Of a DNA stretch of 64,000 nucleotides, positions 47,725 to 54,164 are shown in pieces. The notes beneath the pieces were generated by a model that had not been told where the DNA came from, did no database searches, and worked only from the letters and a program-made list of their open reading frames with translations. Position 1 is the first letter of the stretch; every line of letters begins with the position of its first letter. The translations under genes and the position numbers were made by a program. The DNA is from Thermoplasmatota archaeon (GTDB taxonomy: Archaea; Thermoplasmatota; JAKEGO01): assembly GCA_028279595.1 (NCBI GenBank), contig JANQNK010000008.1, positions 63,713 through 127,712 of the forward strand, in the 5' to 3' direction.

Positions 47725-47901
47725 ATGCCTATGGTGTGGGAGTGCCCAAACTGCGGCCACGTGAACATGCACGAGGTATCGGGTTTCAACAGGGTACGGA
47801 ACCGACGAGTGAGCACCTGCGACAAATGCGGCGAACCACACCCGGAAGGATTCTACATGGTCGAGCCGGACTCACGCGGTGGCGGGGTTATGCCCCGTTG
47901 A
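47725..47901 (+). CDS. Small zinc-ribbon protein (58 aa, below the ORF-track cutoff)
   Basis: MPMVWECPNCGH...TCDKCGE; GGAGG at 47711 and a TATA-like run near 47678. Confidence 0.7.
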   Translation: MPMVWECPNCGHVNMHEVSGFNRVRNRRVSTCDKCGEPHPEGFYMVEPDSRGGGVMPR

Positions 47902-48344
47902 CCCTGATAGTTCCCGCTCCTCTCGGCGTACATCTTCTCGACGGCGGTCGTCATCTCGAGTATCACCATCTGGAGGTAACGGTCTCCCACGTTGATCTTG
48001 ATCGGGTTCGGACCGGCATTGAACCCGCTCATCGTGAGGGTTCCGTTGAAACCCGAGTCGACGACGCCGAAGGATGAGAGCATTCCCTTCCGGACCCATG
48101 AGGACCGGAGCCAAAGGTTCCCGACGAGGTCCTTCGGCATGTCTATGACCTCCAGGGTCGAGACGAGCATCCACTCCCCGGGGAGGAGCTGGAAATCGCC
48201 CTCCGGCTGGACCTCACCGTCGAGCATTATCTCCTTGATCCTGAGGTCGATGCCGTTGGGTGTGAGGTTCTTCTCCTCGAACGGGTCGACGATCGGATGG
48301 TCCTTCATTCGGGCAAGGATATCCCTGTCGCTGAGAACTGCCAT
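47853..48344 (-). CDS. dcd: dCTP deaminase / dUTPase-family protein
   Basis: 'LSDRDI', 'PNGIDLR', 'RSS..R.G', 'VDSGF.G.L', 'YQGQRG'. Confidence 0.9.
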   Translation of the reverse strand: MAVLSDRDILARMKDHPIVDPFEEKNLTPNGIDLRIKEIMLDGEVQPEGDFQLLPGEWMLVSTLEVIDMPKDLVGNLWLRSSWVRKGMLSSFGVVDSGFNGTLTMSGFNAGPNPIKINVGDRYLQMVILEMTTAVEKMYAERSGNYQGQRGITPPPRESGSTM

Positions 48345-48491
48345 GGACCGAGATGGGAGCCAGAGATATAATCCTTGCTCCGTCTTGACTGTGCCGCTCC
48401 ATTGATGAGACGCGTTGGCCCCCGGACCGCGCCGGGGGCGAGCGCGTCAGTCAACCGCAAAACGTTATAGTGCCAAACGATATCATCCAAC

Positions 48492-48565
48492 GGGCCCGTG
48501 AGGTAGTCTGGATATCCTGCCGGCCTTCGGAGCCGGCCACCAGGGTTCGAATCCCTGCGGGTCCG
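48492..48565 (+). tRNA. tRNA-Arg (anticodon TCG)
   Basis: GGGCCCG/CGGGTCC acceptor; CCGGC-CTTCGGA-GCCGG; CAGGG-TTCGAAT-CCCTG; no encoded CCA. Confidence 0.93.
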
Positions 48566-48579
48566 TTTCCCCTCTAACT

Positions 48580-49566
48580 TCAGTTTTCGGCACTTTCAGA
48601 CCGTTTTCTGGCATATCGATTCACCTCTATACGATTTTGAGTTTGTCGGGTACCCGGTTGTGCATATTCTTGATGCATCAACTGGAGTCCTAATTTAACG
48701 TCATCGAACTTAATTCCGAGATATTTGATCGTCGTTTCAGTATTCGTATGACCAAGAGCATAACTTACAACAGCGACATTCTTTGTAGCATCGTACATCC
48801 TACGACCAAAAGTACGCCGTAGATCGTGAGCAGTGAATTCGATGCCTGAATTCACAGACACACGATGAACCAATTCATCGATAGCAGTACGCCGATATCC
48901 GACGATTTGATTCTTTCGTCTATGGACAATTAAACTACCATCATCGTAAACTGGTAACCCAGGAAATTTCATTGAAGCGATTTGCTTTTGTAAACCACGA
49001 TATTCAAAATATGTATTTAGAATATCAATGGTATCAGGATGAAATGGGAGATCCCGCTCCTTTCCATCTTTGTATCCTTTTCCACGTACCCGAATTCGTT
49101 CACGTTTCACATCTACTTCATCAAGGCGCATTCGAAGAGTATCAACACGACGTAATCCCAATTGTAACATTAAGTGAATGACAATTTCTTCAGTAGGTGC
49201 TTGAGCTACAGCTAAAACCCGATCAACCTCATCAGGAGTCAACCAACGACCAACCCGCTGATGTTCCGGAAAATATATTCGATATTTTTAAAGTACATCA
49301 TTTCCAAGAAATTTGAGATATAAATTTATTACACGATAATGCCATTCCTTAAGACCCAACGAGTCAAGTACTTGACCGACATCCTCAAGAGTCCAAACTT
49401 CAGGTAAGGACATCTCGTTACGATCTGAATATTCACAGACACGTTGAATTACTGACCTATAATCTCGAATTGTATTATTGGATACGCCCTTGGCTCGAAG
49501 CTCTCTCTCCCACCGATCAAGGTCTTCCGTTTGAATCGCTATCATCGGGACCACTTCAACAGGCAT
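48580..49566 (-). pseudogene. Tyrosine recombinase/integrase interrupted by one in-frame TAA (49288-49290)
   Basis: ORFs 49288-49566 and 48580-49242 share a frame and read ...NDVL*KYRIYFPEHQRVGRWLTPDEV; R (GLRR), K (RGKG), HxxR (HDLRR), LGH and Y (TIKY) are present. Confidence 0.85.
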
Positions 49567-49657
49567 CTACGCATGGTAATACTCATACGTATATAAATGT
49601 TATTATCACGTAATTATACGGAAAACTACCATATATCGACATGATATATATCCAATA

Positions 49658-49816
49658 ATGCCCCGATATGTTTCAATTTCAGTCCCAATAGGACTTGTAA
49701 ATGAAATCGACCAATTCATTAAAGACCACCCCGAAGCTGGATATACATCACGCCCTGACCTTGTCAAGGATGCATTACGCCGTACAATGATTGATTTACG
49801 CTCAACCTATCATTAA
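49658..49816 (+). CDS. Ribbon-helix-helix (CopG-like) DNA-binding protein, 52 aa
   Basis: MPRYVSISVPIGLVNEIDQFIKDHPEAGYTSRPDLVKDALRR...; divergent from the integrase; not in the ORF track. Confidence 0.8.
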   Translation: MPRYVSISVPIGLVNEIDQFIKDHPEAGYTSRPDLVKDALRRTMIDLRSTYH

Positions 49817-49864
49817 TTACATCCCATCACCAAGAATATCCACCCCACGAATCTTAAATCAACA

Positions 49865-50647
49865 TTGACCTTTTTTTTACAATCAACAATACATTTTAGT
49901 ATTCAAAACCTATATAATTTTATGATTTCATTTCCACCAATCGAACTCTCGTTCAAATATATTTACTACCTAAGTACACTTGGCATTTTTTTTCTTGGTT
50001 TATACGCTTTAAAACAAGGTATTGATCAACTTTCCTTACTAAAAAAACAACATCAAACGAAAATTGAATCAGAACAATTACGCATCAAATTATCCAATCT
50101 ACGAATAAAAAGAGAAGCAATCATCTTTGCTTTAACCCAAAATCAATATTTCGAAGAAGAGATAATACCACTTTATGAAGAATTAAAAGAATCAATAGAC
50201 CTTAAAAACATGAAATATTTTAAAAACGCTACATTAACCATTGAAGGTAATCGAATAAAATTCCACCATAAAACTACGAAAGTCCCAATTGAAGAAAACA
50301 AAATGATAGAAGAACTATCACCAAAATTATCTGTTCTTTATAACAAAATGGGAACATTCGCCATGTATTTCTGTACCGGAATTGCAGACGAACAAACAGG
50401 TTATCATTCTTGTGGTAAGCTCTATATAACAATCATTAAAGACCTCTCCCCACTATTTATCAATATAAATAAAAAAGACAACAACACCATCGATCAATCA
50501 ATCTACCAAATCAAACTCTTCATGAAATGGGAATTGACATCAATTCAAGAAGATTTTATCGAAAATCTCCAGAATCAACTTGAAAAAGGAAAAAACATTG
50601 TTGATATCAACATACCAATTCTTGGGTTATCAAACACTGAACCATAA
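49865..50647 (+). CDS. Hypothetical protein with an N-terminal TM (island cargo)
   Basis: 260-aa AT-rich ORF with one hydrophobic helix; start uncertain. Confidence 0.65.
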   Translation: MTFFLQSTIHFSIQNLYNFMISFPPIELSFKYIYYLSTLGIFFLGLYALKQGIDQLSLLKKQHQTKIESEQLRIKLSNLRIKREAIIFALTQNQYFEEEIIPLYEELKESIDLKNMKYFKNATLTIEGNRIKFHHKTTKVPIEENKMIEELSPKLSVLYNKMGTFAMYFCTGIADEQTGYHSCGKLYITIIKDLSPLFININKKDNNTIDQSIYQIKLFMKWELTSIQEDFIENLQNQLEKGKNIVDINIPILGLSNTEP

Positions 50648-50822
50648 ATTCCCTTAGCACATTCACATTTCAACCGATTCATCGGCTTTAAAACCAAACA
50701 CACCCACCCCAATTCAAACGTAGTCTCAAAGATCATCATGGAACCTTTTCTCAAATTCACAACAATCTTATCGGACATTACCAGATATGCGACATTTCAA
50801 GAAATCCTTTGATAATAGTTAA

Positions 50823-50857
50823 GCGGCTCAACTTGATATTTATTCACGTTGAGCCGC
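50823..50857. terminator. Inverted repeat (10-bp stem), possible terminator between convergent island units
   Basis: gcggctcaac ... gttgagccgc. Confidence 0.45.
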
Positions 50858-50923
50858 CCGTTTCGCACACTCCAATAGGAGTATACATTTAACATTCTAA
50901 GATTATTTAACCCTTTCCCTAAG

Positions 50924-51007
50924 TGCGGGGGATGGGATTTGAACCCACGAACTCCTATGGATTAGTGTGCGAAACTAACGCCGTTGACCAAGCTTAGCTA
51001 CCCCCGC
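50924..51007 (-). tRNA. Non-canonical tRNA: tRNA-Leu body with Ala anticodon CGC
   Basis: GCGGGGG TA GCT AAGCTTGGTCAAC GGC G TTAGT TT-CGC-AC ACTAA TCCATAGGAGTTC GTGGG TTCAAAT CCCAT CCCCCGC A; aligns without gaps to host tRNA-Leu(CAG). Confidence 0.9.
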
Positions 51008-51011
51008 ACAT

Positions 51012-51338
51012 TCACGCTTTTTTCTGATATTCTACATCATCCTCGTCCTCTATAAACAACCAACTATGAACATCCTCTCCACTCTTAATCACTTTAACAA
51101 TTTCAACTGGACTTAAATTCATTAACCGATTAACCTCTTCAAAGTAATCAACCATATTCTCTTCGGTTAAATCAAATTTATTTGCTAAATGATAATCCAA
51201 GTACATTACAGCCATCCTAACTACTGCATTCTGATTCAATTTTTTACCTTGATGATACTCATAATATGATCTAATTCGTTCAATCCATTGTGAAGTTCCT
51301 TTTGATACACGAACAGTTGTATATTCAATATCAAACAT
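51012..51338 (-). CDS. Putative RHH-like DNA-binding protein immediately upstream of the island tRNA
   Basis: N-terminal 'YTTVRVSK.T...I..IR......L.QN.VVRMA' beta-alpha-alpha pattern; GGGGG upstream of the ATG. Confidence 0.65.
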   Translation of the reverse strand: MFDIEYTTVRVSKGTSQWIERIRSYYEYHQGKKLNQNAVVRMAVMYLDYHLANKFDLTEENMVDYFEEVNRLMNLSPVEIVKVIKSGEDVHSWLFIEDEDDVEYQKKA

Positions 51339-51963
51339 ATATTGGATATACCCCCCTTATTATTTATAATTATCCCTGAGTGTGCCATATAATATACAAC
51401 ACAAACAACCATCTTGTAGCAACCCCTTTTCTCACGTTTTTTTACGCTAGAGTAGGGTTTATCGAAGGTTTTTACTCAAAATATGTAAAATGTGTAGCAA
51501 CCTGCCGACCTTAAATTAGATTCATAGGGGGCCCCTGCGGGGCCCCAGGTCGGCCCCCTCCCCACGGAGGTCGTGAGGGACAACGTAACCGAGAAGAAAG
51601 ATTGAGAACGACAAGAACAACTGTCCCTCTTACGGCCTCCTTGGATAGGGTATGCTTTGATCCTCAAAGACGACTGCTATGGCTATTAGATTTGATATTC
51701 AATATAAAGACAAGCCACCCACGATACCCGGGACAGGCAGACCTTCAGCCTGGTCCCGAATCTATCTCCCGCCTTCGTCGCTTTCCACGTTCGAGACGGG
51801 TACACGTGGAAACCGACGCCCCAATACTTGGATGCCCTTGCAAGTATCAAACCAACCATAATTACCAAATTAATATTCAATTTGTATAAATTTAGTCAAA
51901 CAACTAATAAACTTACCATTCAATACAATGTTGGGACCAATCTCGTGGTCTCAAGGTGAAAGT

Positions 51964-52926
51964 ATGAAACATATATTGATAGGAATATGCATTGTATTGG
52001 GAATATTATTGTTGATTGGTAACACCCAAGGGGATCTAATTACCGTCGATGATAGTGGAGGGAAAGACCATTTAACAATACAGGCCGCTGTCGACGCAGC
52101 ATCCAACAACGACAACATCAAGGTGTATGCAGGAACATACGCCGAAACTGTTAATATTACCAACAAAGACATCAATATTTACAACAATCCAGGCGACACC
52201 GTCACTGTTACTGGTGGAGGAGGTTCTACTGATTGGGGTTTCAACATTGTTGATGGTGATGGATTATGGATTGAAGGAATTGACATTGATGATGTAATAC
52301 ACGGAATTCGAGTCGAATCTACTGACGGTATACGTATCGAATATGTTAACATTACAAATATTGACTACACCGGAATTAGATTAAAAGAATGTTCTGATTA
52401 TTGGATCGAACATATATTCGTCGATGGTACCAACACACCCGCAAACGACGGATACGGCATTTACATTTTCTCAACTGATGATACAAATGGAGATAACATG
52501 TGGGGTGACTGTCGAGATTTAACCATTCAAGACATGGGAAAATCAGGAATCCGTATCGAATGGCATACTGGGACTGGTGCTAGCGACATTGTCCTACGTG
52601 ATATTCTAATTGATAACGTTGGAGAAAATGGATTCCATATTAAACGCTCAAAAAATATCAGAATCGTAGATTGTACAACGGATAATACAGGAGAATATGG
52701 AGTCAAATTGATGAATTGCGCTGGTGACGCTAGTAATCCAATCGAAGTTTGGGAAAGCGACTGCTATGCGCATGACTCATATGCAGGTGGATATGACAAT
52801 GTAGGTGAAGACTGGGATAAAAACTACTACGAAGGAGGAACAGGAGATTATACTATGGATGGTGATGCGGGTGCAACTGATACACGTCAAGTTCAAACCG
52901 CATATGATGTGGATCCGTGGCCATAA
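51964..52926 (+). CDS. Secreted right-handed beta-helix (pectin-lyase/NosD-like) protein
   Basis: Signal peptide; 'TIQAAVDAA...D.I.V.AGTY.E.V.I'; repeated 'GIRL/GIYI/GFHI' coils. Confidence 0.85.
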   Translation: MKHILIGICIVLGILLLIGNTQGDLITVDDSGGKDHLTIQAAVDAASNNDNIKVYAGTYAETVNITNKDINIYNNPGDTVTVTGGGGSTDWGFNIVDGDGLWIEGIDIDDVIHGIRVESTDGIRIEYVNITNIDYTGIRLKECSDYWIEHIFVDGTNTPANDGYGIYIFSTDDTNGDNMWGDCRDLTIQDMGKSGIRIEWHTGTGASDIVLRDILIDNVGENGFHIKRSKNIRIVDCTTDNTGEYGVKLMNCAGDASNPIEVWESDCYAHDSYAGGYDNVGEDWDKNYYEGGTGDYTMDGDAGATDTRQVQTAYDVDPWP

Positions 52927-53074
52927 CAGTGTTTACTGAGGGGATATATTCCCCTCACTTTCATTTTTTACGGACCCCGAAGACGACGATAGAGATAATA
53001 CACTACTCCAAGGATGACTATCCATGCAATACAAACTGGAGGATTGAATTCCACAATCAATATCATAATATCAC

Positions 53075-53593
53075 CTACGTATTTACTGCATCTGAGACTA
53101 CTTTCTCTCCAACGACAGTTCCTGATTTCTCTACTTTGACCTTTTTCAATTTCACTCCTTGTTTCTTCACTAGCTCCTGATCAATTTTATAGAAATATTC
53201 GCCACCAATCGATTTTGCAGACATGATTGAATGACGACCTTGGCGTCGATATTTTTGTGGAACTTCTTCCTTTGTAACGTAACCGCGTCGACGAAGAATA
53301 TCCCAGAAACGGACCTCGTCTTCATTCACTGCACCAATCTTCAAGGCTATCTCAAGAAGATCATCATTGACGTCTGCATTGCCATCGATGATGTCCTCGA
53401 TAGGGAAGCTCTCGTGGATTGGATTAACGAACTTGGTCCACAGACTGCCTTTGGTATAAGCAGAATCGAACACCGTTCCAACCTGAGAACTGACCTTACG
53501 ATTCTTGAAGTTGTCTCCTTCTATCATTATCTCGAAACGAATCTTGTAAAGTGCTTTGGAATAGATCTTCACCTTGCCACGGATGTTGAACAT
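53075..53593 (-). CDS. Hypothetical protein (island cargo)
   Basis: 172-aa ORF with no recognised motif. Confidence 0.55.
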   Translation of the reverse strand: MFNIRGKVKIYSKALYKIRFEIMIEGDNFKNRKVSSQVGTVFDSAYTKGSLWTKFVNPIHESFPIEDIIDGNADVNDDLLEIALKIGAVNEDEVRFWDILRRRGYVTKEEVPQKYRRQGRHSIMSAKSIGGEYFYKIDQELVKKQGVKLKKVKVEKSGTVVGEKVVSDAVNT

Positions 53594-53622
53594 AGTGCAA
53601 ATGACAGAGGTGGATTGGAACC

Positions 53623-53740
53623 GTGGATCTAGGACCGGCTCCAGAATCGGGTCTTCGGGAAAAATTCTAGATCATATTGACGATTCCCGAAGCCGGACGG
53701 CCCGTAGGGTCGTCAAGGTCGAATCCCCTCTTCCGCAACA
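53623..53740 (+). repeat. Type-A tRNA-linked structured element (diverged copy)
   Basis: gtggat...acc.gctc..gaa..gggt; hairpins cttcgggaa/ttcccgaag and gacggccc/gggtcgtc; ends aggtcgaatcccctcttccgcaaca. Confidence 0.75.
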
Positions 53741-53885
53741 CCGTTCTCACGTCTCCTATCGATCGTACTCGAAGGGCGTTGCTCCATGACACCATCAAAC
53801 GTCGATTCCCTTGCTTCGGGAATCGACTGGCCCGTGGATTCCATATCGTCTCCGAATTGTGGAATCCCCGGTCCCTGCGGGTCCG
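53741..53885 (+). repeat. Type-B element ending in the tRNA-Arg 3'-end copy (right att)
   Basis: ctcacgtc...gtactcga; hairpin gtcgattccc/gggaatcgac, then tggccc, hairpin ggattcca/tggaatcc, then ccggtccc-tgcgggtccg. Confidence 0.8.
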
Positions 53886-53934
53886 CCTTTCCCCAAACGA
53901 TAATATAACCCTACATTGTTGCATGGAACCCCGT

Positions 53935-54021
53935 GCGGGGGTAGCCAAGCCAGGTCAACGGCGCTAGATTCAGGGTCTAGTCCTTAGCGGTCCGAGGGTT
54001 CGAATCCCTTCCCCCGCACCA
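53935..54021 (+). tRNA. tRNA-Leu (anticodon CAG), CCA encoded
   Basis: CTAGA-TTCAGGG-TCTAG arm, long variable arm, GGTTCGAATCC. Confidence 0.96.
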
Positions 54022-54164
54022 CCACCTTCTCGTCATTTCTAGATTATACTCAGGTGGTGGTGCTGGAAGATGCTTCTAGACGTCGATCCCCTTACCGCAG
54101 GGATCGACTGGCCCGGACGTTTGGCTTCTCGTCAATTCATTTCAAACGTCCGGTCCCTCCCCCC
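54022..54164 (+). repeat. Type-B tRNA-linked structured element
   Basis: Homologous to the reverse complement of 22880-23019, including tgcttctagacgtcgat...atcgactggcccggacgtttggcttctcgtca...caaacgtccggtccctcccccc. Confidence 0.85.

Follow-up and report, generated by a model that had tools for sequence, protein, structure and literature searches.

A leucine-type tRNA with an alanine anticodon in a putative three-part mobile cassette of a Thermoplasmatota archaeon

A 64,000-nucleotide stretch of contig JANQNK010000008.1 from a Thermoplasmatota archaeon of the JAKEGO01 lineage (assembly GCA_028279595.1, positions 63,713 to 127,712 of the forward strand), here called the window, contains a small AT-rich mobile element with an extra tRNA gene that combines an archaeal leucine tRNA body with the alanine anticodon CGC. 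The tRNA gene, here called the odd tRNA, follows a gene for a ribbon-helix-helix (RHH)-like protein and is followed by a short segment complementary to the tRNA itself. The layout of this cassette, the complementarity and the associations of the RHH-like family were observed directly, and from these sequence features the cassette appears to be real and selected; its function is a proposal. The explanation we favour, at somewhat less than an even chance, is that the element carries a mobile cassette in three parts (RHH-like regulator, miscoding tRNA and antisense RNA) for restrained misdecoding, with the odd tRNA as the effector that would insert leucine at GCG codons. We prefer it because a miscoding tRNA under double restraint is the simplest account of all three parts.

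The odd tRNA and its antisense partner

Four tRNA genes were found in the 64-kb window, and that at 50924..51007 on the minus strand was called tRNA-Ala(CGC) by ARAGORN. The gene (anticodon 50969-50971, variable arm 50949-50961, no encoded CCA) gives a complete class II cloverleaf which scores 50.3 bits with Rfam RF00005, compared to 50.1 bits for the host tRNA-Leu(CAG) at 53935..54021 (plus strand), its closest relative, located outside the element. The two are identical at 66 of 84 positions with no gaps. Six of the 18 differences make up three double stem changes (27:43, 31:39 and 50:64), one further stem change leads to a wobble pair, and all 20 stem pairs of the odd tRNA are still paired. 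The fold is the standard 7/5, with A73, G3:C70, a Leu-type D-loop and a 13-base variable region. The anticodon loop, UU-CGC-AC, has the regular length of 7 bases and contains U33 and A37; it differs from tRNA-Leu(CAG) at all four positions 35-38, and its first six bases are those of the host Ala(CGC) loop. The initial annotation had described this intact cloverleaf on a Leu(CAG) body, its A73 and G3:C70 without G3:U70, and its anticodon loop, all of which were found as stated.

Archaeal leucyl-tRNA synthetase (LeuRS) relies on A73, the variable-loop bases A47c and G47d, and U47h, while alanyl-tRNA synthetase (AlaRS) relies on G3:U70 (PMC9976931, PMC4005665). The odd tRNA has the NGC anticodon in a 7-base loop expected of a tRNA-Ala, but not G3:U70, and there are no G:U pairs in its acceptor stem. 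The A-G at the tip of the variable loop (A47c-G47d) stands at the same offset as in four of the five host Leu arms, the fifth arm being one base longer, and U47h is present at the base of the arm. With A73, the A-G at the offset seen in the host and the U all retained, and with no G3:U70, leucine identity is likely, and charging with leucine is predicted. The initial annotation had noted a 13-base variable region with TAG at the same position as in the host; the stem of this arm, however, departs from that of the host by one bulge or mismatch, with alternative registers possible. The claim of Leu identity with an Ala anticodon is thus in line with the sequence, the LeuRS rules and the archaeal-type LeuRS of the host, with the reservation that the irregular variable stem may reduce charging.

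The host genome has all five tRNA-Leu genes and a true, intron-containing tRNA-Ala(CGC) with G3:U70, so the odd gene is an extra one and GCG is no orphan codon. An archaeal-type LeuRS (C1:44460-47279) and an archaeal AlaRS (C11:57156-59768) are encoded by the host, and no synthetase was recognised among the open reading frames (ORFs) of the element. GCG accounts for 31 % of the Ala codons of the host (18 % in its low-GC genes) and was present in 99 % of the long host ORFs that were counted. The rarity of GCG in the element, pointed out in the initial annotation, is real (4 of 48 Ala codons), but it is no lower than in sister elements without the odd tRNA (13 of 90, p=0.42) and mostly reflects GC content. 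Avoidance of GCG as self-protection was rejected on this comparison; the argument from codon avoidance finds no support, as GC content explains the low GCG.

The antisense segment (50860..50882, minus strand) lies on the strand of the tRNA, 41 bases beyond its 3' end, with 8 exact bases against the variable arm and 12 against the anticodon arm. None of 3000 dinucleotide shuffles equalled these 20 exact bases in two blocks (maximum 18), and the alignment score of the partner was not attained in any of 3810 genome windows. The predicted duplex with the odd tRNA has an energy of -32.9 kcal/mol; the host tRNA ranking next reaches -20.1 and the true tRNA-Ala(CGC) -13.7. No comparable partner was found for the host Leu tRNAs, and when about 50 phage tRNAs were tested for partners, two had p<0.02, one of them a tandem copy.

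A TATA-like box (TTAAATA, 50904..50910, minus strand) with purine-rich upstream bases, 21 nucleotides before the antisense segment, is a putative promoter, and a strong hairpin (50821..50860, minus strand), possibly a terminator or stabiliser, would close the small RNA. The predicted 68-base RNA has a small 5' hairpin, a single-stranded stretch showing GCG and the long hairpin (z=-5.8 for the whole RNA). The 8 bases that match the variable arm fold into the 5-bp small hairpin, while the GCG codon is single-stranded. The partner repeats the same anticodon bases 100 nucleotides away. If the segment is instead read as the trailer of a tRNA precursor, its fold-back (-71.0) and the cloverleaf (-70.8) are about equal in energy. 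By sequence the layout is type I-like, i.e. an adjacent RNA with its own predicted promoter, complementary to the effector RNA.

A second pair and the RHH-like gene family

An intron-proof pattern scan of metagenomes revealed an independent case, L197, in which a Leu-body tRNA with the anticodon AGC lies beside an IS6 transposase gene and an NYN-domain gene. The transposase is 67 % identical to one labelled Thermoplasmatota, and three assemblies, which may come from related samples, contain the locus. A divergent, TATA-led segment matches the anticodon arm and the variable arm of this tRNA (10+10 exact bases, none of 3000 shuffles), with the same spacing from TATA box to antisense as in the window, and the partner has the same hairpin-codon-hairpin fold, here showing GCU. 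The cognate duplex of L197 has an energy of -36.3, compared to -18.8 and -12.7 for the crossed duplexes of the two pairs. The anticodon arms of both odd tRNAs are weak (-0.1 and +0.6, compared to -2.0 and -5.9 for host Leu), which would ease invasion by the partner. As far as can be judged from sequence, the design is common to the two pairs and the sequence is not. The NYN-domain nuclease gene (L197:2609-3172) flanks the pair. Two IS6 relatives of the L197 transposase had no tRNA beside them.

The metagenome scan for Leu-body tRNAs with non-Leu anticodons gave six matches: L197, L194, two tRNA-Ser with G73 and two sequences that are not tRNAs. L194 (L194:3319-3404, an archaeal Leu body with the Ser anticodon CGA) was rejected as an error or point mutant, being in a core-gene context, without a partner and one base from CAA. 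Pattern scans of viral contigs gave chance matches or ordinary phage tRNAs, and in the genome collection the matches listed were mostly intron-containing tRNA-Leu genes. No further case was found in 400 genomes of the host phylum, searched with a stricter pattern, or in 301 genomes of the phylum of one Bathyarchaeia genome, and in 37 genomes of another class only tRNA-Ser matched. None of the genome and metagenome scans made gave a close homologue of the odd tRNA. Also seen were phage tRNAs (L029:729-810, L051, L052, L210 and L218) that have Trp or Asn anticodons and what look like long variable regions, and degenerate remnants resembling tRNA-Ser(CGA) in a pair of related genomes (L059:959-989 and L060:1501-1531).

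The RHH-like protein of 108 amino acids is encoded at 51012..51338 (minus strand), with its stop codon 4 nucleotides before the tRNA. A TATA-like box at 51362..51369 (minus strand), approximately 25-30 nucleotides before its start codon, presumably drives a co-transcript of the RHH-like gene and the tRNA. A profile search gave about 20 distant homologues. The protein had no match to RHH families in Pfam and no significant Foldseek match; its weak structural matches were to TraM and RHH antitoxins (for the TraM N-domain, Z 4.5 and a root mean square deviation of 2.2 over 49 residues), and its nearest named Atlas clusters include MetJ and RHH_1 (0.86-0.88). A homodimer model scored 0.68, compared to 0.01 for the best control, with contact agreement of at least 84 %, pLDDT of at least 62 and interface residues 4-51. 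This mark was passed by 20 of 30 solved dimers and one of 23 monomers, and likeness to known RHH dimers may explain the pass. Together these results point to an RHH fold, short of proof.

Genes of this family usually precede an irregular tRNA. When contexts were chosen by rank and by the length of surrounding sequence, blind to content, a tRNA gene or its 5' part began 1-11 bases past the stop codon of the RHH-family gene in 8 of 12 independent loci (the window, L261, L262, L264, L265, L266, L267 and L276, of which L264 is cut by a contig end and L276 has only the 5' half). As a control, an ORF stop was that close upstream in one of 42 ordinary host tRNAs. Five of the loci have Thr-like GGU tRNAs (L261:406-478, L262:311-384, L264:929-966, L266:5270-5342 and L276:1827-1870), with U73 where complete and an 8-base loop with an extra base 5' of the anticodon (the loop of L264 is cut off). 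These are candidates for +1 frameshift suppression at ACC-N, and in one genome (G827) a normal Thr(GGU) gene is present beside the family tRNA with the 8-base loop. L267 has an Arg-type ACG tRNA (L267:909-980) with a bulged or irregular anticodon stem; A34 is unusual in archaea. L265 has a TCG tRNA (L265:5285-5393) with A73 and a loop insertion of about 37 bases, which may be the host's own gene; leaving it out brings the count to 7 of 12.

In the remaining loci the place of the tRNA is taken by an NYN nuclease gene, an IS6 transposase or nothing. The NYN-domain nuclease gene (L269:19-928) overlaps the RHH-family gene, an arrangement seen in L268-L270. Two candidates near family members were rejected: a tRNA-Ala(AGC) call in L265 is false and lies within the region of a tRNA-Trp intron, and a stretch of 15 matching bases close to the L262 tRNA (p=0.008) falls within RHH coding sequence and was taken as chance.

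Proposed mechanism and alternative explanations

In the proposed mechanism the RHH-like gene and the tRNA would be co-transcribed, and the RHH dimer would repress their promoter. Host enzymes would process the tRNA, and the host LeuRS would charge it with leucine, probably weakly given the irregular variable arm. The small RNA would offer its single-stranded GCG to the anticodon loop and then invade the weak anticodon stem; as it would also cover the LeuRS determinants, both charging and decoding would be blocked, either in trans or through fold-back of the precursor. Once this restraint was lost, the tRNA would compete with the host tRNA-Ala(CGC), and leucine would appear at GCG codons across the proteome. 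The purpose may be an addiction or abortive-defence effect of the toxin-antitoxin kind, which is the least certain step, and we put forward a toxin-antitoxin role only tentatively. It is similarly doubtful, but worth considering, that the cassette belongs to an undescribed class of archaeal mobile toxin-antitoxin-like cassettes, the toxin of which would be a miscoding tRNA (Ala to Leu here, +1 frameshift in the relatives). With the same tentativeness, restraint in such a class would come from an RHH autorepressor together with an antisense RNA that mimics the codon and blocks anticodon and synthetase determinants alike.

Several observations weigh against restrained misdecoding. The irregular stem of the variable arm may mean weaker leucylation, and there is no specific avoidance of GCG in the element. 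The exact cassette was seen in one genome and one sequencing run, and antisense pairs were tested in two cases only. No tRNA follows the RHH-family gene in four loci, no antisense partner was seen for the class I family members (L261, L266 and L267), and the tRNA types behind the RHH gene are varied, as a processing signal would also allow. Finally, the broken integrase of the element (described below) suggests that the cassette may be decaying.

The main rival, which we consider somewhat unlikely, is that the odd tRNA is a selected but non-decoding RNA, either a cleavage signal for the RHH message or a decoy for LeuRS, ribosomes or a tRNA nuclease, without delivery of leucine; the antisense RNA would then tune that role or keep a by-product harmless. 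The occurrence of three tRNA bodies at the same place behind RHH genes, many of them with irregular loops, fits such a role, as does the weakness of the anticodon stem and the variable arm of the odd tRNA. Some allo-tRNAs near toxin-antitoxin genes are inactive in translation, yet two variants killed cells (PMC5389517). A non-decoding role is less easily reconciled with the regular anticodon loop of 7 bases, in which U33 and A37 are found, and with the kept A73 and A-G loop. The partner covers exactly the decoding and charging surfaces, and the L197 pair has no RHH gene directly upstream, both of which also weigh against such a role.

It is improbable that the gene is a relic, i.e. a captured tRNA-Leu that drifted after immobilisation of the element, with the partner as a left-over duplication. 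The nonsense codon in the integrase and the lack of close homologues in the scans made are consistent with drift, but the 18 differences left every stem pair intact, three of them via double changes, and the partner fits the derived anticodon arm and not its Leu ancestor. In addition, L197 shows the same design, and the link to the RHH gene is seen again in samples unrelated to each other. The view in the initial annotation that selection rather than decay shaped the gene is strengthened by the matching partner and the conserved upstream regulator family; that annotation had noted neither of these, nor the nonsense codon of the integrase.

Low-level recoding that is adaptive or self-serving, either as stress tuning of the proteome or for the element's own genes, with no toxin involved, we regard as quite improbable. 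Mistranslation by tRNA-ProX did raise antibiotic tolerance (PMC10404621), and the sole GCG of the integrase aligns with Leu in the paralogue on contig C7, but this site is a single case in a poorly conserved N-terminal stretch. The element has only the four GCG codons and no dedicated synthetase, which speaks against such recoding.

An assembly or sequencing artefact is very improbable: a 28-kb Logan contig of depth 22.5 is identical to the window over 47800-51527 (3.7 kb), four adjacent loop bases differ from Leu and the partner repeats the anticodon bases, although the genome itself may stem from the sole run containing the locus, a coral metagenome, and the contig is hence not independent. 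An assembler slip is ruled out by this identical contig, and the anticodon bases are those given in the initial annotation. The runs listed as containing the locus included no RNA dataset.

The carrier element and comparison with known systems

The 5.3-kb element is bounded by a 14-bp repeat of the 3' end of the host tRNA-Arg(TCG) (48492-48565), with the left attachment repeat at 48552..48565 and the identical right one at 53872..53885 (both plus strand). Its tyrosine integrase (48580..49566, minus strand) is interrupted by a single TAA in frame at codon 93 (49288-49290), a position occupied by Gln in the intact C7 paralogue, and because of this stop codon the element is probably immobile today. 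The relatives of this integrase make a Thermoplasmatota host probable. Divergent from the integrase is a gene for 52 amino acids (49658..49816, plus strand), CopG/RHH-like by eye and without a Pfam match, which is common to related elements on contigs C7 and C19. A 260-amino-acid AT-rich cargo ORF (49865..50647, plus strand) is convergent with the cassette. Further cargo consists of a beta-helix protein with a hydrophobic N-terminus (51928..52926, plus strand) and a 172-amino-acid ORF (53075..53593, minus strand) that is 84 % identical to the C-terminal part of a 416-amino-acid ORF of the C7 element.

The C7 and C19 elements have the integrase, the small divergent gene and a non-coding block (51498..51839) in common with the element of the window, and no odd tRNA was found in them. 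The block, which is kept at C7:12624-12767 and C19:189952-190273, is GC-rich and hairpin-rich and could be an origin or an RNA; no Rfam family matched it at gathering level. Repeats of about 90 bases (53780-53880 and 54005-54100) flank the tRNA-Leu(CAG) and recur beside other tRNA-Leu genes (C14, C7 and C18), some with copies of tRNA 3' ends. Over 52984-54164 the metagenome run also contained variant contigs, approximately 85-90 % alike, from sister elements or strains.

With an integrase, here broken, and a direct repeat of a tRNA 3' end, the element has the features of a cryptic integrated element. The archaeal elements of this type have the same tyrosine integrase, tRNA 3'-end repeat and RHH genes, and, as in them, no hallmark viral or conjugation genes were recognised in the 5.3-kb element (PMC6563490). 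The element is thus ordinary as a carrier, and a term search of the same paper gave no miscoding tRNA as a passenger (PMC6563490).

The frameshift suppressor tRNA-SufJ is a mutant of a chromosomal tRNA. The five GGU tRNAs behind RHH-family genes are SufJ-like in that an insertion 5' of the anticodon gives them an 8-base loop (PMC4238358), but they are natural cassette genes, and the odd tRNA of the window has a 7-base loop.

The nev-tRNAs of nematodes are the closest functional precedent. According to the abstract describing them (PMC3333845), they are charged with leucine and decode foreign codons as leucine in vitro, and like the odd tRNA they are class II, derived from tRNA-Leu and equipped with non-Leu (and non-Ser) anticodons. 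They are, however, eukaryotic and chromosomal and have Gly or Ile anticodons, whereas the odd tRNA is archaeal and on a mobile element, and their abstract speaks neither of a regulator nor of an antisense RNA or a mobile element. The closest prokaryotic precedent is tRNA-ProX with ProRSx of Streptomyces and Kitasatospora, natural dual-identity mistranslators that act on Ala codons among others and are toxic in E. coli (PMC10404621). These differ in having a Pro body, in being bacterial and in lying typically beside a dedicated ProRS isoform (PMC10404621), while the odd tRNA has a Leu body, would use the host synthetase and is accompanied by an RHH gene and an antisense RNA.

For proximity to toxin-antitoxin genes the precedent is the allo-tRNAs, a group of irregular tRNAs that have mismatched anticodons and occur in the neighbourhood of toxin-antitoxin and transposon genes (Mukai et al., PMC5389517). 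They are bacterial and have an 8/4 or 9/3 fold, in contrast to the 7/5 fold here, and the text of the paper makes no mention of antisense partners (PMC5389517). Judged by sequence, the odd tRNA falls outside the nev-tRNA, tRNA-ProX and allo-tRNA classes. CreTA of archaea and bacteria and the type I systems share with the proposed cassette either a toxin that acts on translation at the RNA level or an antidote in the form of an antisense RNA (PMC8501985, PMC9458426). CreT, however, acts by sequestering a host tRNA and is under repression by Cascade (PMC8501985, PMC9458426), and type I antidotes target the mRNA of the toxin, whereas here the toxin itself would be a tRNA with which the antidote pairs.

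Term searches of reviews on archaeal codes and mistranslation gave no natural miscoding tRNA from archaea, and the literature searched, with subscription journals largely outside its coverage, described no natural dedicated mistranslating tRNA from archaea, no tRNA-antisense cassette and no tRNA under its own antisense RNA. If the proposed function is correct, mobile elements would wield the genetic code as a weapon or an addiction device, and missense and frameshift tRNAs would be interchangeable behind a single family of regulators. A 68-base RNA would switch off one tRNA selectively, in a whole cassette of only about 550 bases, and such cassettes would provide a natural route for the controlled entry of ambiguous decoding into a genome.
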